A stretch of 64,000 bases of DNA from an uncultured delta proteobacterium (GTDB lineage: Bacteria > Desulfobacterota > Binatia > Binatales > Binataceae). The DNA lies in NCBI GenBank assembly GCA_963724765.1, contig CAVRVY010000003.1, positions 1,504,001 through 1,568,000 on the forward strand, read 5' to 3'. Under the pieces are notes generated by a model. It made no database searches and was not told the DNA's origin. It saw only the letters and a program-made list of their open reading frames with translations. Position 1 is the stretch's first letter; each line of letters starts with the position of its first letter. The translations under genes were made by a program, and so were the position numbers. Of this stretch, positions 41,890-52,386 are shown piece by piece.

Positions 41890-42106
41890 GCCGCGTACAT
41901 AAGTGTCTTTCGTTATTCTCTCCCCTGTGTTTTGGGGGAGCAGGTCAGAAAGTGCTCAACCAGTGATTCGCGAAGTTTCGTGTGCGTAAAGCAATCGGGG
42001 GGGGTCGAGAGGTCTAAGGCCTCGCCTTGCGGCGCTTAATTCTCTGTATTACAGCGTGACTACTGGTCTCCGTTTTTCGATCTCCACTTTTTTGGAGCGA
42101 CACGAC

Positions 42107-43357
42107 ATGCATGACAAAGACAACGGGCACAACACGCGCAGTACAAATGACGGCGGTCTGCTCTCCGGACTTCGGGTGATCGACTGCGGAACCTACGTTG
42201 CCGGCCCAGCGGCCGCCACGATCATGTCCGACTTCGGCGCCGAGGTGATCAAAATCGAGCGCCCCGGTGGCGGCGACCTGTGGCGGCTTTTTTCGAAGCT
42301 CCCCGGCACGGCCAAGTCCGAACTCGATTGGTGCTGGGTCCTCACCAGCCGCAACAAGAAAAGTGTCGCGCTGGATCTGGGACGGCCCGAAGGACGCGAA
42401 GCGCTGCTTCGCCTGGTGGGCACGGCGGATGTCTTCCTCACCAACTACCAGAGAACGCTGCTCGAGAAATTCCACCTGACTTGGGAGGACCTTGCGCCTG
42501 TCAACGACCGGCTAGTCTACGCGCACCTGACCGGCTACGGTGACGCGGGCGACGACGCAGATGACCCGGCGTTCGACGCGCTGGCGTACTGGGCACGCTC
42601 GGGTCTGATGACGAGCGTGACGGGGATCGACGGTTCGCCCAGCGGACCTCGGCCGGGGATGGGCGATCATCCAACCTCGATGTCGCTGTTCGGGGCGATC
42701 ATGCTGGGCCTTTACCGGCGCGAGCGCACCGGGCGCGGATCCAGGGTTAGTACATCTTTGCTGGCGAGCGGGGCGTGGGCCAACGCGTGCGACATTCAGG
42801 CCAAGCTCTTGAACGCGAAATTTCCCGAGCGCGGCGAGGGCAAGCATCCACCCAACCCGCTCACGGCTGTGTACCTCAGCCACGACGGCAAGATGTTTCT
42901 CCTCGTGCTAATCGATCCGGACAACGAGTTTCCGCGCCTGTGCCAAGCTTTCGGCCAGCCTGAACTCGGCACGGGCGAGTTGTTTGGAAGCAACGCCGAC
43001 CGCGATCAAAACGCGGCGGCGCTGTATGCAATCCTGCAGTCGCAGTTCGAATCGCGCGACCTGGCGGAGTGGAAAACGATCTTCAAATGCAACGACATCA
43101 AATGGGCGCCGCTGCCCAGGCTCGACGACGTCGTGCAGGATCCCCAGATGCGCGCGGCCGAGGCGTTCGTGAAGATGGATTATCCCGGGGCCGGTGTGCT
43201 GGAGACGGTGAACAGCCCGCTTTTCGTCTCCGGCGTGGAAAAACGGAAGCCCACGGCGGCGGCGGAGGTCGGCGCGCACACGCGCGAGGTACTGCAGGAA
43301 CTCGGGTATAGCGCGGAGGCAATCGAATCGATAGTGCGCGATGGCGCTCGGCGCTAG
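42107..43357 (+). CDS. CaiB/BaiF family CoA-transferase
   Basis: LRVIDCGTYVAGP, FGAEVIKIE, RNKKSVALDL, GMGDH. Confidence 0.9.
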   Translation: MHDKDNGHNTRSTNDGGLLSGLRVIDCGTYVAGPAAATIMSDFGAEVIKIERPGGGDLWRLFSKLPGTAKSELDWCWVLTSRNKKSVALDLGRPEGREALLRLVGTADVFLTNYQRTLLEKFHLTWEDLAPVNDRLVYAHLTGYGDAGDDADDPAFDALAYWARSGLMTSVTGIDGSPSGPRPGMGDHPTSMSLFGAIMLGLYRRERTGRGSRVSTSLLASGAWANACDIQAKLLNAKFPERGEGKHPPNPLTAVYLSHDGKMFLLVLIDPDNEFPRLCQAFGQPELGTGELFGSNADRDQNAAALYAILQSQFESRDLAEWKTIFKCNDIKWAPLPRLDDVVQDPQMRAAEAFVKMDYPGAGVLETVNSPLFVSGVEKRKPTAAAEVGAHTREVLQELGYSAEAIESIVRDGARR

Positions 43358-43507
43358 GGCAAAATCGTCGCGGTGACGCCATTACCGCCGCGGACGATAG
43401 TGGGATAAGCTGGAAGGTAGGTTTCTCGGCAACTGAGGAACGTAAAGGCTAAGCGAAAGCACAGCGATTCCTTCGCACAAGATCGCTAAAGGAGCGGAAA
43501 AGATAAG

Positions 43508-44860
43508 ATGCATTTCATGTGGTTTACGGAACGGGCGTACCATTATGATCCTGAGGTCGACCCGGCCAAGTATCATGCGCTGGAGAATCAGATCGTTGGA
43601 CTGCGCAGCTTCTTCAACACCCCCAACCGTTTTTTCGAGCGCGAGCACGGAGCGAAACTGCTCAACCAATACCTCGACGAGAAGATTTACACGGACTCCG
43701 AGCTGATGAGCTTCGACGGCGTGATGCTCAACGAGCATCATGGCACGCCGTTTTGCCTCGGTGCCGTGATGGATGTCGAAGCTTCCATCCTCGCCAAGAC
43801 CACCAAGCGGCTGAAGATGGTCCTGCTCGGCAATCCCGTCGCCACCGTCGCCAATCCGCTGCGCCTGGCGGAAGAACTGGCGATGATCGATCTCATCTCG
43901 GGCGGACGCCTGGTCTCCGGATGGGTGCGCGGCGCCGGTTCCGAGCAGTTCGCCAACAACACCAACCCGGCGCTCAACCGCGAACTGTTCGAGGAAGGCG
44001 TCGATTTCATCGTCAAGGCGTGGACCACGCCGGGCCCATTTCGCTACGAGGGCAAGCACTACAACTTCCGCAACGTGAACCCCTGGGTGCTGCCGCTGCA
44101 ACGGCCGCATCCGCCGTTCTGGATCCCGGGCCTGGTGAGTCCCGACACCGCCTTTTGGTGCGCCCGCAAGCGCTATCCGTACGTCGCCCTGGCCACGAGG
44201 CTGCAGCCGACGCTGGAGCTCTGGGACTTCTATGCGAAGGCGGCTGCGCAGGAGGGTTATCAGGCGGGGCCGGAGAATTTCGGCTACTTGCAGCCGGTGG
44301 TGGTGGCCGATACGCAGGAGCGAGCGGAGGAACTGGGCAAACGGATTCTTTTCGGCGGCGCCTTTGCGCACTTTGCTCGGCCGGAATGGATGTTCCCTCC
44401 GGGATACAATTCCAAGGCCGCAACCAAGCGTCTGGCCGAGTCGAATTTCGGCGCCAACGCCGCGGCCAAGTCGCTTTACGGCGAGGGCGGCAACAACGAG
44501 TCCGAAGAACAGATCGAAGCCGTCAAGAAACACATCTATGACGGCTATCCGGACGTCCTGAAGGACTACGTAATGATCGCCGGCACGCCTGACAACGTGA
44601 TTCCCAAGCTCAATAAAGTGCTCGACGTCCTGCGCCCGGGCATCTTTTCGTTCTGGCTCGACGGACCGGTCCCGGCCAAGGACCGGATGCGATGCCTGGA
44701 ATTGCTCAACCGCGACGTGATTCCGGCCATGCGCGACTACGGCAAGACGATCGGATTGGTCGATCCATTCCAGCGCGCTCCGGGTTCGCGCCCGTTGCGT
44801 CCGGGGGTTGCACCAGAGCCGGTGAGCAATGCCGACGCGCTCGCGTCGATGACGGCCTGA
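43508..44860 (+). CDS. Luciferase-like (LLM) flavin-dependent oxidoreductase
   Basis: FDGVMLNEHH, PLRLAEELAMIDLISGGRL, PLQRPHPP. Confidence 0.9.
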   Translation: MHFMWFTERAYHYDPEVDPAKYHALENQIVGLRSFFNTPNRFFEREHGAKLLNQYLDEKIYTDSELMSFDGVMLNEHHGTPFCLGAVMDVEASILAKTTKRLKMVLLGNPVATVANPLRLAEELAMIDLISGGRLVSGWVRGAGSEQFANNTNPALNRELFEEGVDFIVKAWTTPGPFRYEGKHYNFRNVNPWVLPLQRPHPPFWIPGLVSPDTAFWCARKRYPYVALATRLQPTLELWDFYAKAAAQEGYQAGPENFGYLQPVVVADTQERAEELGKRILFGGAFAHFARPEWMFPPGYNSKAATKRLAESNFGANAAAKSLYGEGGNNESEEQIEAVKKHIYDGYPDVLKDYVMIAGTPDNVIPKLNKVLDVLRPGIFSFWLDGPVPAKDRMRCLELLNRDVIPAMRDYGKTIGLVDPFQRAPGSRPLRPGVAPEPVSNADALASMTA

Positions 44861-44992
44861 ACCGGAATTCGCGCAAAACCCTGGGCCGGACTGCCATCCG
44901 GCTCGGCCCAGGGTCCAACCCGTTCGCCCTGCGCTAGCTGCGTAACATCGCCCTCGCGCCTCAAAAAACCCTCGTTCTCCGAGGACTCCGCC

Positions 44993-45045
44993 TGTTGACC
45001 GCGGATGAAAATCGGTCTACACGGGCATAAGTGAAAGTAAACTTT
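44993..45045 (+). promoter_or_regulatory. Candidate promoter/operator of the CuMMO operon
   Basis: TTGACC-N17-TACACG overlapped by TGTTGACCG-N11-CGGTCTACA; AAAGT-AA-ACTTT at 45034-45045. Confidence 0.4.
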
Positions 45046-45061
45046 TCGGCGAGGTCTGCTT

Positions 45062-45862
45062 ATGAGCTCTTCGGAAGAGGTGGCGGCCGGGCGTGCTCCT
45101 ACTGACTGGCTCGTCGGCTGGAAAACTCTATTTGTCGCATGCGGCCTGCTAATGGCCTGCAACGTTTTCCTTTGGGTCTGGGATTACAACTACGCGTTTA
45201 CGGCGGGACTTGATTCCTCGAGCCGCGCCTTCACGCTTCACTACCGCACGCTGTTCTGGGGTGAGCTGCTGAGCGTGGGGGCATTTGCCGGCCTGTGGTA
45301 CGGATGGCTGATGCGGACCGGCCGCAGTCTCGTGGGCGAGGCGGTGGCGCCCGCCGAAGAGGTGCGGCGCGTTGTGGTGCTGTGGGGAATTATCGGAGTT
45401 ACCAGCCTCTCGATCTACATCGAGGCGAGCTTCTGGCCCAACTGGGACGGCGCGTGGCATCAGACGATGGTGCGCGATACCGCGCTCACCCCGACCCACA
45501 TTCCGATGTTCTACTTCTTCTTCCCGATGTCGGTGGTGCTGGCCCTGGGAGCGTACCTGTACGGGCGCTTTCGGATTCCCGCGGTCTACGGCGGCGAGAA
45601 GGGATTCCCGTGGTCTTTCTTTTTGTTGATCGCGGCCGCGGTTCTCGAATTCGTGGAGGTCGCCTTCAACGAATGGGGTCACAGTCTCTGGATGTCAGAG
45701 GAATTCTTCTCGGTGCCCTTCCATTGGCCTTTTGTCATTTATGGATGGCTGGCGGGTGGGATGTTCGCGGTGTGGGGCGAAACCATCCTCTATCTCTTCC
45801 AGATAGAAAAGAGGGCGCGAGCGGTGGAAGAACTCCCGACCCATACGGCTGCCGCCGGCTAA
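45062..45862 (+). CDS. pmoC: Copper membrane monooxygenase subunit C (PmoC/AmoC family)
   Basis: AGLDS, EEVRR, DGAWHQTMVRDT..TPTH (D129/H133/H146), NEWGH...EEFFSVPFH (N203/H207/H221). Confidence 0.93.
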   Translation: MSSSEEVAAGRAPTDWLVGWKTLFVACGLLMACNVFLWVWDYNYAFTAGLDSSSRAFTLHYRTLFWGELLSVGAFAGLWYGWLMRTGRSLVGEAVAPAEEVRRVVVLWGIIGVTSLSIYIEASFWPNWDGAWHQTMVRDTALTPTHIPMFYFFFPMSVVLALGAYLYGRFRIPAVYGGEKGFPWSFFLLIAAAVLEFVEVAFNEWGHSLWMSEEFFSVPFHWPFVIYGWLAGGMFAVWGETILYLFQIEKRARAVEELPTHTAAAG

Positions 45863-45911
45863 GCGGCGCAAACTGCTCTTCTCAAATCCTGGCGTCTCGC
45901 GCGAGGGAAGC

Positions 45912-46709
45912 ATGGCGACAGCACCATCGTTAGCCGCAGCCGCGGCGGCCGAGAAGCAACGCAGGCTCGCGCTGCGCGACCTGCTCAACGCGAAATATCA
46001 ATGGATCGATCGCACCTGGGACGCGGTCTTCTGGATCACGGCCATCTTCGTCGTTGCCGGGGCGGCGGACATCACGCGGCTGCTGTTCGCCGGCGATTGG
46101 GATTTCTGGACTGATTGGAAAGATCCGCAATGGTGGCCGGTGGTGACCGCCTTCGCCACCATCATCATTCCTTCCGCACTCCAATACATTCAGTGGGCCG
46201 CCTGGCGGTTCCCCACCGGCGCGACGTACACGTGCGTGTGCCTTTTCATGGCCTCGTGGATCGGGCGCTACTTCCAATGGCACGTGGCCGAAAGCTATCC
46301 AATGAACTTCATATGGCCGATATCGACGATTCCGGCGGCCATAATTCTTGACTGGCTATTGATGAGAACGAAAAGTTTCGTACTGACATCGCTTTTCGGC
46401 GGAGGGATTTGGGCCGTGATGGTGTGGAGCTTCAACTATATCCCGCTCGCGCCATTCCTTCAGCCGATGCAATTCATGCATCACATTCTCACGGTTGCCG
46501 ACGTCCAGGGCATCGTTTACATCCGCACCCAGACGCCCGAATACATGCGGCATATTGAACGCGGCGCGCTGCGCAGCTTTCTCGGCGAGACCCAGTACGT
46601 GTCGCTGCTGTTTGGCGGCACGATGGCGATGGTCGGTTATTGGATCGGCCAGTTCATCGGGCGATACCTCGCCGTGTGGCCGATTGGCAGATACATCAAG
46701 ACCGTCTGA
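45912..46709 (+). CDS. pmoA: Copper membrane monooxygenase subunit A (PmoA/AmoA family), divergent
   Basis: GDWDFWTDWKD, RFPTGAT, YPMNF, ADVQG, RTQTPEYMRHIERGALRSF. Confidence 0.93.
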   Translation: MATAPSLAAAAAAEKQRRLALRDLLNAKYQWIDRTWDAVFWITAIFVVAGAADITRLLFAGDWDFWTDWKDPQWWPVVTAFATIIIPSALQYIQWAAWRFPTGATYTCVCLFMASWIGRYFQWHVAESYPMNFIWPISTIPAAIILDWLLMRTKSFVLTSLFGGGIWAVMVWSFNYIPLAPFLQPMQFMHHILTVADVQGIVYIRTQTPEYMRHIERGALRSFLGETQYVSLLFGGTMAMVGYWIGQFIGRYLAVWPIGRYIKTV

Positions 46710-46728
46710 GCGAGGCGCGGGCACAGCG

Positions 46729-46965
46729 ATGCGAACCGTCTTTCGTTGCTTACGCGCCGTCGTGGTCGCGCTCCTGTGGACCAGCGTATTTGCCGCCAGC
46801 GCCTATGCGCATGGTGGAATCGCCGGGCCCGACGAGCTTGGCCCGCCGGTAATCACCTCGGCCGTGCTCGGCATCGGTGGCTACTGGTTGATGTTGCTGT
46901 GGCCGTCGCGCCGCCGTCCGGTGGTCAGCAAAAAAAACAAGCCGATGCGTAACGTGATGAAGTAG
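46729..46965 (+). CDS. 78-aa single-pass membrane protein between pmoA and pmoB
   Basis: ATG 19 nt after pmoA stop; signal peptide ending AYA, then HGG; TM VITSAVLGIGGYWLMLLW; basic tail. Confidence 0.72.
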   Translation: MRTVFRCLRAVVVALLWTSVFAASAYAHGGIAGPDELGPPVITSAVLGIGGYWLMLLWPSRRRPVVSKKNKPMRNVMK

Positions 46966-47007
46966 CGGACTTGCAGGCGGATTTTCCACGCCATACGGGG
47001 AGGCGGA

Positions 47008-48258
47008 ATGCGAATGCGATTTCCGGCTGTTCTGTCAGCGGCTCTCTTCCTGCTCACAGCATCCTATGCGCCACGCGCTTTCGCGCACGGCGAAGCGGCG
47101 GACGAGCCGTTCCTCAAGGATCTCACCGTCGCCTTCTATGACGTGCACATCTCGCCTACCACGATCAAAGTAGGTGAGCCGGTCACGATCACTGGAGCGG
47201 TGAAAATTCTCGAGACCTGGCCATATACGCTCGATCCGCCGCAAACCGCGTACATCACGCCGGTCGTTCCGGGCCCGGTCTTCGCGCTCATCAACCGGGA
47301 GATTAATGGGACCGCGGCGCCGGGCTCGATCCTGGTCGACAAGGGCGGCACTTATCATTTCAAAATGGTGATCGAGGGGCGCGACCCCGGAAACTGGCAC
47401 GTGCATCCGGGAATCGCTATACAGGGCACCGGGACTCTCATCGGCCCGGGCGAGTGGGTCACGGTTGAGCGGGGGGCCGCGCCCTTCAAAATGGACGTGA
47501 CGCTGCTCACTGGCCAAACCGTCAATCTGGAGCATTACGGCGGCAGTTTCGTATGGTGGTGGTCATTCGCCGGGTTCCTGATCGGCATGATCTGGATGAT
47601 CTATTGGACCGTTCCCAAACGTACCGTTACCCGTCTCGCGGTGACCACACAAATACCGGTCAACGACGACGCTCCCGACATCGGACTCATCACCCCGCGC
47701 GACCACATGTGGATGGACGTGCTCGCCGGTGCGACGATCGCGATGCTGGTCGTCGGCTGGATCTACATGGCAGTGAAGTTTCCCGTGCGGTTGCCGCAGC
47801 AGACGGTGCGCTTTGCGCCCGAGGTCATCGATTCCACCACTCATTCGGTCCAGGTGATGAAAGCCGATTCCACCTACGACGATCGGACCGATACGCTGTT
47901 GATAAACCTCGCGGTCAGGAATACCGGGACCGTTGCGTTAAGCCTGAAGCAATACATCATGGCGATGGCCACGTTCGTCAATGGCGACAAGAAAGAACAG
48001 GAAAAGGCCGGACCGGCGCACTACGTCGGGCGCATGCAGGTCGAGCCCGACGCTCCGATCGAGCCCGGACAGACCGCGAAGGTGCAATTGAAGATAAGTA
48101 GTCCGCTGTTCGATGAAGAGCGGCTCATCCCGCTGCACGACCCGCAGGAGCGTATCGCGGGGCTGCTGCGCTTTACCGGTCCGCAGGGTCACGAGGACCT
48201 GGTTACCCTGCATACCGATCTCGTGCCAACGGAGTTCCGCCCGCAGTATTTGCCTTAG
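47008..48258 (+). CDS. pmoB: Copper membrane monooxygenase subunit B (PmoB/AmoB family)
   Basis: Signal peptide AFA then HGE; FYD; PGPV; GNWHVH; GPGEW; two TMs; PIEPGQT; IAGLL. Confidence 0.93.
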   Translation: MRMRFPAVLSAALFLLTASYAPRAFAHGEAADEPFLKDLTVAFYDVHISPTTIKVGEPVTITGAVKILETWPYTLDPPQTAYITPVVPGPVFALINREINGTAAPGSILVDKGGTYHFKMVIEGRDPGNWHVHPGIAIQGTGTLIGPGEWVTVERGAAPFKMDVTLLTGQTVNLEHYGGSFVWWWSFAGFLIGMIWMIYWTVPKRTVTRLAVTTQIPVNDDAPDIGLITPRDHMWMDVLAGATIAMLVVGWIYMAVKFPVRLPQQTVRFAPEVIDSTTHSVQVMKADSTYDDRTDTLLINLAVRNTGTVALSLKQYIMAMATFVNGDKKEQEKAGPAHYVGRMQVEPDAPIEPGQTAKVQLKISSPLFDEERLIPLHDPQERIAGLLRFTGPQGHEDLVTLHTDLVPTEFRPQYLP

Positions 48259-48276
48259 TGCTGAACGAGGAGAGAC

Positions 48277-48822
48277 GTGAAGATCAAGCGACGCGAGTTC
48301 CTGCACAAGAGCGCGCTGGTGGTCGCCGGCGTATCGGCAGCGGCCGCTGGTGTTACGGTCACCGGCTTTGCCGCCGAATGGACTTCGAAATTAAAGACCC
48401 TGAATGCACACGAGGCTGAAACGCTGCTCAAGATGGCGCGGCAGATCTTCCCGCACGACCGCCTCGGCGATAGCTACTATATAAAAGTAGTTGATGACCT
48501 CGATGCGGAGGCGGCAAGCAAGCCCGCCACCGCCAGAATGATAAGCGCAGGAGTAGCTAATCTGGATCATTTGGCGAAAGGCGAATTTGCCGCCCAACCC
48601 GCCAGCGATCAAATCGCCGCGCTCAAGAAAATTCAGCATACGCCGTTTTTCGAGAAGGTCCGCAGCACCGAGCTGGTTTCGCTGTACAATAACGAGGACG
48701 TTTGGAAGGTCTTCGGCTACCAGGGCGCCTCCTACCGTTTCGGCGGTTACCTGCATCACGGCTTCAACGACCTGAATTGGCTGCCGGAACCACCCGAAGC
48801 GGCAAGCCCGAAACCGGGCTGA
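48277..48822 (+). CDS. Tat-signal small subunit (gluconate 2-dehydrogenase subunit 3-like)
   Basis: KRREFL twin-arginine motif; IFPHD; LYNNEDVWKVFGYQG; GGYLHHGFNDLNWL. Confidence 0.8.
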   Translation: MKIKRREFLHKSALVVAGVSAAAAGVTVTGFAAEWTSKLKTLNAHEAETLLKMARQIFPHDRLGDSYYIKVVDDLDAEAASKPATARMISAGVANLDHLAKGEFAAQPASDQIAALKKIQHTPFFEKVRSTELVSLYNNEDVWKVFGYQGASYRFGGYLHHGFNDLNWLPEPPEAASPKPG

Positions 48823-48837
48823 ACGGAGAGTTGCATC

Positions 48838-50406
48838 GTGGCTCGATTCGATTCGAATGACGATTCCGTCGTGGTAATCATCGGTTCGGGAGCGGGCGGA
48901 GGCACGCTGGCGAACGAGCTCTGTCACAAGGGCTTCAAGGTGGTGATGCTCGAGGCGGGGCAGCGTCAGTCGCCGCAGACCTTTCACAACGACGAGTGGT
49001 TCGCATTCAAGCAACTAGCCTGGCTCGATAAGCGCACCACCTCGGGGACCTGGCGGGTAGCGAAGGACTTCCCCAACCTGCCGGCCTGGACCTGCAAGAC
49101 GGTTGGTGGAACGACCGTGCACTGGGCGGGCGCGTCGTTGCGCTTTCAGGAGCACGAATTCAAGACCAAGACCACCTATTCAAGTGTCAGCGGTGCGAAC
49201 CTTCTCGACTGGCCGATAAGCCTCGCGGAATTGGCGCCTTACTACGCCAAGGCCGAGGATAAGATGGGCGTGACGCGGACTAATGATATTCCGGGACTCC
49301 CGGGGAATAACAATTTCAAGGTAATGTATAATGGTGCCACGCGTGTAGGGTATAAGACTGTGCACACCGGGCGCATGGCGATTAATAGCCGGCCCCGCGA
49401 CCGCCGTTCGTCCTGCTGGCAACTCGGATTTTGTTTCCAGGGCTGCAAGTCGGGAGCGAAGTGGTCAACTCTCTACACCGAAATTCCGAAGGCCGAGTCC
49501 ACTGGTAAGCTCGATTTGCGGCCCGGGTCCTACGCGCTCCAGATTCAGCATGACGCCAATGGCAAAGCGACCGGCGTGCTGTACGCCGATAAGGACGGCA
49601 AACATGTCGTGCAGAAGGCGCGCATCGTGTGCGTGGCCTGCAATTCGATCGAAAGCGCGCGGCTCCTGCTCAACTCGGCCTCGTCCACGTTCCCGCACGG
49701 GCTCGCCAATTCATCCGGCCAGGTCGGCAGAAACTACATGCGGCATACGACCGGCTCCGTCTACGCCATTTTCGACAAGCCGGTCCATATGTATCGTGGT
49801 ACCGTGATGGCCGGAATCATCACCGACGAAGCCGAGTTGAATACCAAGCGCGGGTTTGCCGGCGGTTTCGAGATGGAGACCATCTCGCTCGGACTGCCGT
49901 TCGCGGCCGCGTTCCTGGATCCGGGAGCCTGGGGACGCGACTATTCGAGCATGCTTGAGCAGTATCCCAACATGGCTGGGTTGTGGATCGTGGGCGAGGA
50001 CATGCCGCAGGCGACCAACGCCGTGACGCTCCATCCGACGGTAAAGGACCAGTGGGGTCTCCCGATTCCGAACGTGCACTACGACGATCATCCCAACGAC
50101 GTCGCCATGCGCAACTACGGATACAAGCAGGGCGCTGCGGTGTACAATGCCGTTGGGGCGATCAAGACCATCGCGGTCCCGCCGTATCCTTCGACGCATA
50201 ACCTGGGCACGTGCCGTATGAGCGAGCGCCCCGGCGACGGCGTCTGCAATAAGTGGGGCCAGACTCACGACGTGAAAAATCTGTTCATTTCCGACGGCAG
50301 CCAGTTCACGTCCAGTGGGGGCGAGAATCCCACGCTCACGATCGTCAGCCTGGCCATCAGGCAAGCCGATCGCATCGCCGCCGAGAGTGCGAAGCGGAAC
50401 CTCTAG
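48838..50406 (+). CDS. GMC family flavin oxidoreductase
   Basis: IIGSGAGGG, VGGTTVHW, CWQLGFCFQGC, GRNYMRH, HNLGTCRM, NPTLTI; no signal peptide. Confidence 0.93.
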   Translation: MARFDSNDDSVVVIIGSGAGGGTLANELCHKGFKVVMLEAGQRQSPQTFHNDEWFAFKQLAWLDKRTTSGTWRVAKDFPNLPAWTCKTVGGTTVHWAGASLRFQEHEFKTKTTYSSVSGANLLDWPISLAELAPYYAKAEDKMGVTRTNDIPGLPGNNNFKVMYNGATRVGYKTVHTGRMAINSRPRDRRSSCWQLGFCFQGCKSGAKWSTLYTEIPKAESTGKLDLRPGSYALQIQHDANGKATGVLYADKDGKHVVQKARIVCVACNSIESARLLLNSASSTFPHGLANSSGQVGRNYMRHTTGSVYAIFDKPVHMYRGTVMAGIITDEAELNTKRGFAGGFEMETISLGLPFAAAFLDPGAWGRDYSSMLEQYPNMAGLWIVGEDMPQATNAVTLHPTVKDQWGLPIPNVHYDDHPNDVAMRNYGYKQGAAVYNAVGAIKTIAVPPYPSTHNLGTCRMSERPGDGVCNKWGQTHDVKNLFISDGSQFTSSGGENPTLTIVSLAIRQADRIAAESAKRNL

Positions 50407-50418
50407 CGGAAGCTCCAG

Positions 50419-51036
50419 ATGACGCGGCGCGTTTTCGGATTTCGCAGCGGCGCGTCGGCAGTTTGGATCGCCTCAGCGGCGATACTCATGCTGGCGCTTC
50501 CGTTCGCGGCGCGGGCTGAACTCGGCAAAGCCGCGGCGCGGGCGGTGGCGAGTCCTGCCGACGGCCTGCCAAAAGTAAGTCTTACAGACCAGAATGGCAG
50601 AGCGATCTCGCTTTCGTCATTGAAGGGCAAGCCGGCACTGGTCGCTTTTATCCACACCTCGTGCGAAGGGCCCTGCGAGCTGATCACTGCCGAGATGAAG
50701 TCGGTCGCGCGGAGCCTGGGGCCCAGCTTCAGGTCCGAAGTCACGATGGTCTCGATCACTACGGACCCCAAGGAGGACGGATCGCGCGAGCTGCTTGCCT
50801 ATGCCAAGGCGCAAGGAGTGGACGCCGACGGATGGGTGTTCCTGACCGGCGCGCCCGCAAAGATTCGCCGGCTCCTGGCCCTTTACGGCGTCTCGGCTGA
50901 AGACGACGACTCGGCCCACGTCCTGGAGCTGTTTCTGCTCAGCGCCGACGGCGTTGGATTACGCCGTTACAATGGTCTCGCGACACGTCCGGAAACGATC
51001 GCCTCGGATATCAGGAAAACCGTCTCGCTTCATTAG
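50419..51036 (+). CDS. SCO1/SenC copper chaperone
   Basis: N-terminal anchor, LTDQNG, TSCEGPC (CxxxC), ITTDP, WVFLTG, distal His (SAH). Confidence 0.88.
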   Translation: MTRRVFGFRSGASAVWIASAAILMLALPFAARAELGKAAARAVASPADGLPKVSLTDQNGRAISLSSLKGKPALVAFIHTSCEGPCELITAEMKSVARSLGPSFRSEVTMVSITTDPKEDGSRELLAYAKAQGVDADGWVFLTGAPAKIRRLLALYGVSAEDDDSAHVLELFLLSADGVGLRRYNGLATRPETIASDIRKTVSLH

Positions 51037-51219
51037 TCGAATCTGCCCGATCGCGCTCACCGCGCGCCGCTACGGCTGAAACAAATCGCCGCCGCCGGCC
51101 GTTTCTATTCCAGCAGGGGCTGTGAAAAGGTACTTGATAGCCGCGCTCGGTTGAGGAACAGGGCGCGCGCATGGCCGGGAAGGGCAGGGACGGGACCGGA
51201 GGGGACCCGGCAGGGCGTC

Positions 51220-52386
51220 ATGCTAAGGGACGGCAAGCGATACGGCGAGCGATTTGGTCTGACGGCGACGGCCGCGATCTGCGTTGCCATATTGCTCGCC
51301 GCAGTCTCGCCGGCAGCGCCGCAGCAGAACGGATTCGGCGCGCCTCCTTCGACAATCCATGATCAGGGCGGCTCGGTGCTCGAAGTGCCGGCGGCGCCGG
51401 CGAGCCAGGGCGGCAAGGAAGCCTCCACGATACCGCCGCTCACGCCGCAGCAGGGCCAGGAACTGGAACTTCCCGCGCGCGCGTTGCGCGCCCAGAGCGG
51501 CTACGAGCAGCTCACGGTGACGGTGACCGATCAGGGCGGCCGTTACGTCACCGGCCTGCAGAAGAGCGATTTCCGCATCTACGTCGACGGCATCCAGCAG
51601 CCGCTCGAGTTCCTGCGCCGCGACACCAACACGCCGGTGTCGATCGGAATCCTTGTTGACACCTCGGGCAGCATGGAACCGAAGATTCCACAGGCGCGCG
51701 CGGCGATTGCGGAGTTCATCCGCGAGCTCAACCCGAGCGACGATATCTTCCTGTATGCGTTCTCAGACCAGCAATTCCTGTTGCAGCCGTTTACGATCAA
51801 TCATGAGCTGGTGATGCGCCGGCTCGGTCTGCTCCATGCCTTTGGTGACACGGCGATCTTCGACACCATCATAGATGGTCTGCACAGGATCAGTCGCGGG
51901 CGCTACGACAAAAAAGCGTTGCTGGTCGTGACCGACGGGATGGACAATGCGAGCCGGGCGACGCTGCCGGAGGTGGTTGGCCGCGCGCGCCGGATGGGCG
52001 TGCTGATCTACTCGATCGGAATCGGCGATCCGAACTCGAGCAAGATCGGTTTCGGCATCGGCTCGCTGCTGTTTGGCGGCAATCTCGACCACGTCGACGC
52101 CGAGATGTTGCGCGAGCTGTCGACCGAGAGCGGCGCGCGTACCTACCTGCTGCGCGAAGTTGGCGACGGTGAACTGCTGCGCCAGGATTGCGTCGCAATC
52201 AGCAACGAGTTGCGAGAACAATATACTGCGGGCTTCGTGGTCCCGGATCCCTCGATGCCGGGTTATCGCAGCCTGCGCGTGGACATCCCGGGAAGGCCCG
52301 AGCTTACGGTACGCACGCGCAAAGGCGTGACCGTTGGCCCGGGCGCGCCGCCAGCATACGCCGGTGCTGGCGTGCCAAATCCGTAG
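51220..52386 (+). CDS. Exported VWA domain protein
   Basis: TVTDQGGRYVTGL, MIDAS DTSGS, TAIFD, VTDG. Confidence 0.85.
   Translation: MLRDGKRYGERFGLTATAAICVAILLAAVSPAAPQQNGFGAPPSTIHDQGGSVLEVPAAPASQGGKEASTIPPLTPQQGQELELPARALRAQSGYEQLTVTVTDQGGRYVTGLQKSDFRIYVDGIQQPLEFLRRDTNTPVSIGILVDTSGSMEPKIPQARAAIAEFIRELNPSDDIFLYAFSDQQFLLQPFTINHELVMRRLGLLHAFGDTAIFDTIIDGLHRISRGRYDKKALLVVTDGMDNASRATLPEVVGRARRMGVLIYSIGIGDPNSSKIGFGIGSLLFGGNLDHVDAEMLRELSTESGARTYLLREVGDGELLRQDCVAISNELREQYTAGFVVPDPSMPGYRSLRVDIPGRPELTVRTRKGVTVGPGAPPAYAGAGVPNP

Follow-up and report, generated by a model that had tools for sequence, protein, structure and literature searches.

The 64,000-nucleotide stretch of DNA analysed here, called the window in the following (positions 1,504,001 to 1,568,000 of contig CAVRVY010000003.1, assembly GCA_963724765.1, from an uncultured delta proteobacterium of the Binataceae, a soil bacterium), contains seven co-oriented plus-strand open reading frames (ORFs) in the order C-A-X-B-T-G-S. 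C, A and B are the predicted subunits of a copper membrane monooxygenase (CuMMO), X is a small ORF (orfX), T is a "Tat subunit" named after its twin-arginine (Tat) signal, G is a flavoprotein of the GMC family, and S is an SCO protein. Judged by its sequence, the enzyme is a hydrocarbon monooxygenase (HMO)-like CuMMO of the Binataceae (Binatota), which belongs to a published but uncharacterised lineage; X, T, G and S are co-conserved with it. We consider it probable that this HMO-like CuMMO constitutes one unit with T-G as a product-oxidising dehydrogenase, S as a copper handler and X as a fourth subunit. The features of the locus are compiled in Table 1.

Table 1. Genes and putative signals of the CuMMO locus. 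Positions are those of the window.
Feature	Position	Strand	Length	Assignment and evidence
Hairpin, GC-rich	44879..44913	+		just 3' of the stop codon of the upstream LLM gene (TGA 44858-44860)
Promoter-like block, conserved	44993..45035	+		TTGACC 44995-45000, 17-nt spacer, TACACG 45018-45023
C	45062..45862	+	266 aa	CuMMO subunit C (PmoC/HmoC-like); Pfam AmoC 3.1e-44; PDB PmoC 3chx_C 1.3e-40
A	45912..46709	+	265 aa	CuMMO subunit A; Pfam AMO 3.5e-59
X (orfX)	46729..46965	+	78 aa	internal ATG of ORF 46495-46965; signal peptide, one transmembrane helix
B	47008..48258	+	416 aa	CuMMO subunit B; signal peptide ending in AFA, followed by H27; Pfam Monooxygenase_B 8e-83; PDB 3rgb_A 1.8e-63
T	48277..48822	+	181 aa	small subunit; twin-arginine signal (R5 R6); orthologue families
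G	48838..50406	+	522 aa	GMC-family FAD dehydrogenase, large subunit; Pfam GMC_oxred_N 8.2e-20, GMC_oxred_C 6.1e-24
S	50419..51036	+	205 aa	SCO1/SenC-type copper chaperone; hydrophobic N-terminal stretch (signal or anchor); Pfam SCO1-SenC 5.1e-19

The Pfam matches of C, A and B all exceed the gathering scores, which places the three proteins in the CuMMO superfamily. At the CuB site, H27 and the motif H131-V-H133 of PmoB align to AHGE and HVH of PmoB from M. capsulatus (3rgb_A); in PmoC, the residues D129/H133/H146 of the CuC site and N203/H207/H221 of the CuD site are identical in the aligned PmoC 3chx_C. The assignment of these residues as CuB, CuC and CuD ligands we take over from the literature on particulate methane monooxygenase (pMMO). 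All of them are invariant across 29 aligned orthologues. C, A and B are thus recognisable as a predicted CuMMO bearing all known copper ligands. The initial annotation, which had listed these ligands and regarded the enzyme as functional, is borne out to the extent that with all ligands kept and Pfam matches for each subunit the enzyme looks intact. It had also described the enzyme as far from canonical pMMO and ammonia monooxygenase (AMO), and the family models agree: the scores for the NCBIfam models AmoA/B/C_BACT are below the equivalog cut-offs for A (209 vs 290), B (285 vs 336) and C (172 vs 319), as are those for the TIGR models CH4_NH3mon_ox_A/B/C, so that the subunits do not qualify as pMMO/AMO equivalogs. 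Subunit A gives the sole PF02461 match in the source genome (5.4 Mb, 4 contigs, 97% complete), which consequently encodes a single CuMMO.

A genome scan with one genome per species yielded 146 PmoA relatives; the locus counts given below refer to the best 80 of these. Nearly all of these 80 loci come from metagenome-assembled genomes (MAGs) with the titles Binatia, Binataceae or 'delta proteobacterium', which means that the window enzyme is itself a Binatota CuMMO and not, as first supposed, distinct from them. In loci L001-L008, again mostly Binataceae or 'delta proteobacterium' MAGs, PmoA is 96-98% identical to the window copy, and there are many further metagenomic relatives with identities of 57-97%. 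Compared with plasmid-borne references, PmoA is 44.8% identical to HmoA of Mycolicibacterium chubuense NBB4, 46-47% identical to the Rhodococcus proteins and 35% identical to PxmA of Methylomagnum; to named Actinomycetota proteins the identity is 60-69%. In a quick maximum-likelihood tree of 38 PmoA rows, which was computed without references for Nocardioides CF8 and the tropical upland soil cluster (TUSC) and without several chosen loci whose ORFs were not placed in the A family, the Binatia sequences form a clade of their own (support of 100 in the Shimodaira-Hasegawa-like approximate likelihood ratio test, SH-aLRT). This clade joins a soil group consisting of Carbonactinospora, Lentzea, Egibacteraceae, Dormibacteraeota and Caldinitratiruptor (SH-aLRT 98), and a long branch splits both sister clades from the HMO sequences of NBB4 and Rhodococcus. 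Because of this long branch and the 44.8% identity to NBB4 HmoA, we place the window CuMMO, on the basis of these comparisons, outside the characterised actinobacterial group of HMO and particulate butane monooxygenase (pBMO). Its separation from TUSC rests on the 60-69% identity to Actinomycetota proteins and on published papers. For neither the Binatia clade nor the soil group next to it did the literature searched yield a characterised member. In many genomes of another Binatia family (L051-L080), a second copy of PmoA occurs, which is 36-41% identical.

CuMMOs of Binatota have been described with the gene orders CAB and 'CAxB or CAxxB (x a hypothetical protein)' by Murphy et al. (2021, mBio, PMC8262859); according to the available text, they belong to an Actinobacteria/SAR324-affiliated clade, and their substrate, including methane, was left open. 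Likewise, the accessible part of a preprint locates a clade named 'putative pmoA Binatales' among hydrocarbon monooxygenases (10.64898/2026.02.02.703227). The window locus, a contiguous C-A-x-B arrangement in a Binatia genome, is of the C-A-x-B type and shares with the clusters of Murphy et al. the phylum, the CuMMO clade, the gene order and the conserved CuB histidines. The text of PMC8262859, as far as available, mentions neither a GMC dehydrogenase nor a small subunit, an SCO protein or the nature of x; its supplementary tables may list neighbouring genes. With hmoCAB of NBB4, a characterised C2-C4 alkane monooxygenase, the window has in common the order C-A-B and an adjoining alcohol dehydrogenase (ADH), but in NBB4 this is the N,N-dimethyl-4-nitrosoaniline (NDMA)-dependent Mdo, and the two PmoA sequences are separated as described above.

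T and G resemble the subunits of known flavin dehydrogenases. The closest solved relatives of G are the large subunit of fructose dehydrogenase (7w2j_A, 9.1e-48) and FAD-glucose dehydrogenase (6a2u_B, 6.5e-42). The three cysteines of its C-x5-C-x3-C motif align to CCgnnnCmpiC of fructose dehydrogenase; presumably they form a 3Fe-4S site, as in fructose and FAD-glucose dehydrogenase. The sequence of G opens with the FAD-binding glycine motif, and a signal peptide is lacking. Among the orthologues of T, the residues R5, R6 and F8 are invariant; PF13618 (Gluconate_2-dh3; best E-value 5.5e-7) and PF12318 (FAD-SLDH) were each found in 11 of 16 orthologues and TAT_signal in 7 of 16. For the window copy itself, neither PF13618 nor PF12318 was matched at E <= 1, the Pfam Tat-signal match is only sub-threshold, and a search with the single sequence gave no relative in the PDB. 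In the ESM Atlas, T reached a score of 0.97 to clusters of gluconate 2-dehydrogenase subunit 3; in fold searches the small subunit of fructose dehydrogenase ranked first, though not above background. These data identify T-G as a putative Tat-exported, two-subunit FAD dehydrogenase of the fructose/glucose/gluconate dehydrogenase type, that is, as a predicted periplasmic flavoprotein dehydrogenase with hitch-hiker export. Fructose dehydrogenase (7w2j), FAD-glucose dehydrogenase (6a2u), gluconate 2-dehydrogenase and FAD-sorbitol dehydrogenase share with T-G the GMC large subunit with C-x5-C-x3-C and the small subunit with a Tat signal. In contrast to these enzymes, T-G has no multi-haem cytochrome c subunit, and its genomic partner is a CuMMO and not sugar metabolism. 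Sister lineages possess a monohaem cytochrome c of ~130-160 aa; the best match to it in the window genome is 36% identical over 92 residues and lies on another contig.

G is found within the locus in 39/80 and S in 38/80 cases, and three arrangements of the genes occur. The order of the window, C-A-X-B-T-G-S, is that of L001-L009. In L010-L017, the genes for a Zn-dependent ADH (Zn-ADH) and a monohaem cytochrome c are inserted, which gives C-A-X-B-Zn-ADH-cytochrome c-T-G-S; L016 has two additional genes (360 and 332 aa) between these two (L016:13955-16032). In ~16 loci between L018 and L043, the order is T-G-(PmoD-SCO)-C-A-X-B, and in metagenome copies of this arrangement as well as in the genome loci L019, L020, L028 and L037 a cytochrome c gene is located just 5' of T. 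Since the phylum is broad and PmoA occurred in only 2 of 401 genomes of a phylum-level sample, co-occurrence was determined in 401 genomes sampled evenly from the class; GMC orthologues were accepted at E <= 1e-150, and the overlap was obtained by comparing genome lists. A PmoA match is present in 89 of these genomes (30/94 in family f1, 52/55 in f4, 5/8 in f112, 1/1 in f123) and a GMC orthologue in 44 (31/94, 9/55, 2/8 and 1/1, respectively), with zero in all other families for both. PmoA is also found in 40 of the 44 genomes with a GMC orthologue, or in 39 of 43 if the unpublished genome G595, which is included in the counts, is omitted. Four genomes deviate: in G713 a contig begins with PmoB, in G717 the GMC match is only 53% identical, and the other two are G522 and G763. 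G522 is a Binataceae genome, 93% complete, without a PmoA match; its locus L165 (G522:C3:32000-51999) has the order ADH-cytochrome c-T-G, with a G that is 86% identical. Note that the sampled relatives are not independent of each other. The initial annotation had made its proposal depend on the co-conservation of the GMC and SCO genes; with 40 of 44 genomes, a 41st with PmoB at a contig edge, and linkage in three gene orders, this co-conservation is evident. From the co-occurrence and from orders that are rearranged yet remain linked, we argue for a functional tie between T-G and the CuMMO.

Other dehydrogenases take the place of T-G beside other CuMMOs of the broader HMO-type group. An NDMA-dependent ADH adjoins hmoCAB in both NBB4 and Rhodococcus; of 45 metagenome loci from outside Binatia, 24 encode a Zn-ADH immediately 5' of C, and T, G and S are missing from all of these loci; and in the other Binatia family, a pyrroloquinoline quinone (PQQ) ADH and a multicopper oxidase follow B. 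With different ADHs occupying the same place in other CuMMO lineages, a product-oxidising role of T-G would fit, and the swapping of four unrelated ADH types at one position represents a clear non-orthologous replacement around one enzyme. The full layout in the other Binatia family (L051-L080) is PmoD-C-A-X-B, followed by the multicopper oxidase, a 241-aa Cu-oxidase_2-like protein and the PQQ ADH (for example L074:13026-14723, L075:14754-15479 and L078:15501-17273); an Fe-ADH and an alpha/beta hydrolase are encoded upstream of the CuMMO. In the window genome, no PQQ alcohol or methanol dehydrogenase was detected at E <= 1e-10. It does contain an orthologue of the Zn-ADH (78% identical) elsewhere, on contig C2, and a by-eye look at its neighbourhood revealed no evident pathway genes.

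In S, the residues H79, C82, C86 and H167 are invariant in 18 orthologues, so that the CxxxC motif and the distal histidine are kept and S can be assigned as an intact Sco-type copper chaperone on these grounds. It is the third SCO copy of the genome, which encodes two paralogues (43% identical) elsewhere. A stand-alone homologue of PmoD (6cpd_A, 4.6e-9) with ~190 aa is found directly upstream of pmoC in 40 loci. In 23 sister loci, a PmoD-like domain is fused to SCO, and the resulting 406-aa protein is encoded at this very position; in 31 loci plus the window, SCO is unfused. We take the fusion as linking SCO to the copper machinery of the CuMMO. The fusion protein, which is found e.g. at L020:7837-9057 and also in L018, L019, L021-L023 and others, begins, once mature, with H-R-x-G-G-P-N-D-P-C; this periplasmic PmoD-like domain is followed by a transmembrane helix and then by SCO1. 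No paper describing it was found in the literature searched, the matches being incidental by title and abstract. In L052 (12375-12965) and L053 (12357-12917), pmoB is immediately followed by another, divergent PmoD-like gene, so that these loci have two, the other lying 5' of pmoC.

Of the 80 loci, 79 have an orthologue of orfX between A and B; in the remaining one, the contig breaks off just 3' of A. According to prediction, the signal peptide is cleaved between A27 and H28. The mature protein would expose ~13 residues (HGGIAGPDELGPP) to the periplasm, cross the membrane once as a helix and end in a basic tail in the cytoplasm. In the alignment, Ala-His is followed by a short acidic, Pro-rich segment, the helix ends in an invariant W-P and the tail varies in length; A27, H28, P40, Y52, W58 and P59 are invariant. 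As ~13 periplasmic residues offer no room for a cupredoxin domain, orfX is not PmoD. It has no Pfam or NCBIfam family. The protein family comprises 423 clusters at 90% identity, all named 'hypothetical', with 101 representatives at E <= 0.001 among 1.84 billion proteins, and a search of the ESM Atlas returned only a Binatota 'hypothetical protein' cluster. Since X-like ORFs were found with the X profile in the long A-B gap of 8 non-Binatia metagenome loci (E 8e-7 to 9e-3), the family reaches beyond Binatia. In L035 (10799-12391), the X frame continues into pmoB without a stop codon and gives a 530-aa ORF, which is either a natural fusion or results from an indel error of this long-read MAG; in L037, a near relative, X and B overlap in different frames.

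Native cryo-EM structures contain an unidentified 'exogenous helix' on the outer face of PmoC/AmoC, and archaea possess the small extra subunits AmoX/Y/Z, with amoX linked to amoA, as stated in the available text of a review (PMC13058606). This is why orfX was subjected to a complex prediction, for which residues 28-78 of X were combined with C, A and B (residues 27-416). The score was 0.55 (0.53, 0.57 and 0.55 in the individual runs), compared with 0.26 for the best control; the runs share at least 73% of the contacts, and the predicted local distance difference test (pLDDT) value of the partner is at least 59. In the calibration of the tool, 58 of 80 solved complexes attained the mark, as did 2 of 110 mismatched pairs; only 7 of the 80 solved complexes, plus both passing mismatches, had scores of 0.60 or under. 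On the strength of these models, the chances are roughly even that X is an accessory membrane subunit, and we regard it as a candidate for a fourth CuMMO subunit. X resembles the 'exogenous helix' and AmoX/Y/Z in being a small membrane protein and may, like them, associate with the core trimer; unlike them, it is encoded within the operon and has a cleavable signal peptide and a conserved N-terminal histidine, and there is no sequence relation. 'Hypothetical' ORFs with one transmembrane helix and a basic stretch also follow hmoB in M. chubuense NBB4 (L162:9110-9325) and Rhodococcus sp. WAY2 (L164:9087-9368). The AHGG...DE motif of these small single-pass ORFs resembles X, but a signal peptide is missing. 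An hhalign comparison gave E-values of 0.007 over 13 columns for NBB4 and 0.014 for Rhodococcus; homology is not claimed, as the X profile misses both ORFs even after one iteration.

We propose the following mechanism for the unit. On the periplasmic side of the membrane, the CuMMO would hydroxylate a small substrate without charge; short-chain alkanes or ketones such as acetone are most likely, methane and ammonia less so. T-G would oxidise the resulting alcohol or hydroxy-ketone in the periplasm, to which G would be exported by the Tat signal of T. Electrons would pass from FAD via the probable 3Fe-4S cluster to a c-type cytochrome or quinone and could then return to the monooxygenase as reductant. 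S would supply or handle copper for the CuMMO complex, and X, with its single membrane passage and the histidine at its predicted mature N-terminus, would sit in the complex as a supernumerary fourth subunit. Periplasmic oxidation of the monooxygenase product by T-G is, by analogy, the simplest reading, and the module of oxygenase, product-oxidising flavoenzyme and copper loader suggested by the initial annotation is still the best interpretation of the co-conserved genes. Several observations speak against it. The substrate is deduced solely from neighbouring genes and analogy, and the 3Fe-4S role of the three cysteines of G from the literature on fructose and FAD-glucose dehydrogenase. The fold match of T to the small subunit of fructose dehydrogenase does not exceed background (Foldseek E 0.33; VIA Z 4.5, root mean square deviation 5.4, 108 aligned), being tied with unrelated helical proteins, and by the prediction tool's own calibration the support for X as a subunit is weak. 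The cytochrome c gene preceding T in the sister lineages is absent from the operon and the genome of the window, and no PmoD-like gene was found in the genome by tblastn or by a profile search of six-frame ORFs (E <= 1). Finally, 49 of the 89 PmoA-positive genomes, mostly of family f4, have no GMC orthologue, whereas G522 (ADH-cytochrome c-T-G) and G763 (T-G) have no detected CuMMO, which indicates that the dehydrogenase can work alone.

The last-mentioned genomes lend some weight to the idea that T-G and SCO are mere neighbours of the CuMMO, T-G being a periplasmic sugar or polyol dehydrogenase and SCO an assembly factor of cytochrome oxidase; the solved relatives of G do act on sugars, and the classical function of Sco proteins is to load the CuA site of cytochrome oxidase (PMC6669012, available text). 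We nevertheless think this hardly probable, as PmoA occurs in 40 of the 44 GMC-positive genomes compared with 89 of 401 overall, the CuMMO-free families all are without GMC orthologue, the linkage survives three rearrangements, two further SCO paralogues are available for housekeeping, and an SCO-PmoD fusion is located directly 5' of pmoC in 23 loci. Slightly less remote, yet still improbable, is a pMMO in a methanotrophic organism. All pMMO copper ligands are present, and for Binatota with the same CuMMO type methane was left open in the accessible text of PMC8262859; but homologues of PQQ methanol or alcohol dehydrogenases were not found in the 97%-complete genome, none of the subunits attains the equivalog cut-offs for pMMO/AMO, and the enzyme groups with HMO-like sequences, in agreement with the position of 'putative pmoA Binatales' in the part of the preprint cited above. 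An AMO, to which the CuMMO family membership and the best NCBIfam names (AmoA/B/C_BACT, though below cut-off) would point, is very improbable as judged by family scores, placement and partner genes: the scores are far under the equivalog cut-offs, the enzyme is not placed with AMO and the partner genes are alcohol-type dehydrogenases.

A more specific version of the preferred reading deserves separate consideration. In Methylacidiphilum sp. IT6, the genes for GmcA and GmcB are located beside pmoCAB3; PMO3 oxidises acetone, and for the GMC enzyme, 2-propanol and acetol have been proposed as substrates (Awala et al. 2021, PMC8630023, available text). As in the window, the CuMMO genes adjoin those of a two-subunit GMC dehydrogenase with a Tat signal on the small subunit, and the proposed logic, in which both the precursor of the monooxygenase substrate and the monooxygenase product are oxidised in the periplasm, is shared. 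The IT6 cluster differs from the window in phylum and CuMMO clade; as far as the accessible text goes, it contains pmoD, lactate dehydrogenase, glyoxalase I and PEP synthase and neither X nor SCO. No further published combination of a CuMMO with a two-subunit GMC dehydrogenase was found in the literature searched. It is this parallel that makes acetone or another ketone a serious candidate substrate of the window enzyme; no evidence presented here decides between ketones and short alkanes. Specifically, the CuMMO could be an acetone or ketone monooxygenase like PMO3, and T-G a dehydrogenase for acetol (and 2-propanol) which forms methylglyoxal. Besides the fact that the sole published cluster found with large and Tat-bearing small GMC subunits belongs to an acetone-oxidising PMO3, the use of GMC oxidoreductase as a marker for acetol processing (PMC12533140) and the Zn-ADH and cytochrome c genes between B and T in L010-L017, which fit a route from 2-propanol via acetone to acetol, speak for this version. 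However, the ten window genes scanned include no glyoxalase, lactate dehydrogenase or pmoD, and the CuMMO is of the hydrocarbon-monooxygenase and not of the verrucomicrobial type. We therefore rate it as possible, but clearly as a minority prospect. A similarly tentative elaboration concerns the partners jointly: X could be a true fourth HMO-type subunit, that is, an operon-encoded 'exogenous helix', T-G a dedicated supply of reductant, and PmoD-SCO the mark of a CuMMO-specific copper insertion. In this case, the N-terminal histidine of X at the periplasmic membrane surface could aid the binding or delivery of copper, and T-G would provide, from within the operon, a solution to the long-standing problem of CuMMO reduction.

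As to novelty, the initial annotation knew of no CuMMO operon with this layout and considered the locus the best candidate for a new system. The latter is too strong, since the C-A-x-B order of Binatota (PMC8262859) and the CuMMO/GMC pairing of IT6 (PMC8630023) are already in print, as the available texts attest; the former holds for SCO and the nature of X, for which no description was found. New here is thus the set of partners, in which the GMC part has one published analogue and SCO and the nature of X have none in the literature searched. Three aspects merit further attention: the possible role of X as fourth subunit, the exchange of dehydrogenases and the PmoD-SCO fusions. Marker genes of the Binatia and soil sister groups are widespread in soil surveys, where they are sometimes taken as methane oxidation; the partner set suggests another class of substrate, namely an alcohol-forming oxidation of small hydrocarbons or ketones and not of methane. 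X and SCO may explain the difficulty of expressing CuMMOs in other hosts, and the partner set indicates which genes to co-express and which features to seek in native structures.

The extent of the unit was deduced from the arrangement of the genes and their surroundings. The ORF coordinates give intergenic gaps of 49, 19, 42, 18, 15 and 12 nt from C to S and thus match exactly the seven co-oriented genes and the gaps reported initially. Ahead of C, the hairpin listed in Table 1 has an RNA folding energy of -29.7 kcal/mol (z -2.45; equalled by 3 of 200 shuffles), and its stem is conserved in 5 relatives despite sequence changes; it is a putative terminator, which has no T-run, and likely marks the 5' boundary of the unit. 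The promoter-like block downstream of it has the consensus TTGACC-17 nt-TA(A/C)ACG, is positioned ~30-65 nt 5' of the pmoC start and hardly varies among 6 aligned upstream regions, in contrast to the sequence further 5'; GAGG at 45051-45054 precedes the ATG of pmoC (45062). A strict sigma-70 scan found 0 sites. No terminator-like site lies in any intergenic gap of the operon; the two detected are both intragenic, which is fewer than the shuffle mean of 5.5, and no significant hairpin was found 3' of SCO (z 0.46). Given the short gaps, the lack of intergenic terminator-like sites and the hairpin and promoter-like block ahead of C, we infer a single transcript from C to S.

The Pfam scan, which covered ten genes of the window, shows that the neighbours of the operon encode a CoA-transferase III, an LLM oxidoreductase and a VWA protein. 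The first two, located upstream (42056-44860), belong to large sets of paralogues, with 47 tblastn pieces for the LLM oxidoreductase and 42 for the CoA-transferase III genome-wide (E <= 1e-5). An orthologue of the LLM gene (87-98% identical) is retained in L001-L009, and in L021 and L025 a 44%-identical LLM is encoded near the cluster. The VWA protein, of the 'acidobact_VWFA' type (51151-52386), is encoded 3' of SCO. As the distance between SCO and VWA shifts by ~2 kb among close relatives, its position is probably a coincidence; a VWA/MoxR pair is likewise found beside the hmo-linked dehydrogenase of NBB4 and Rhodococcus.

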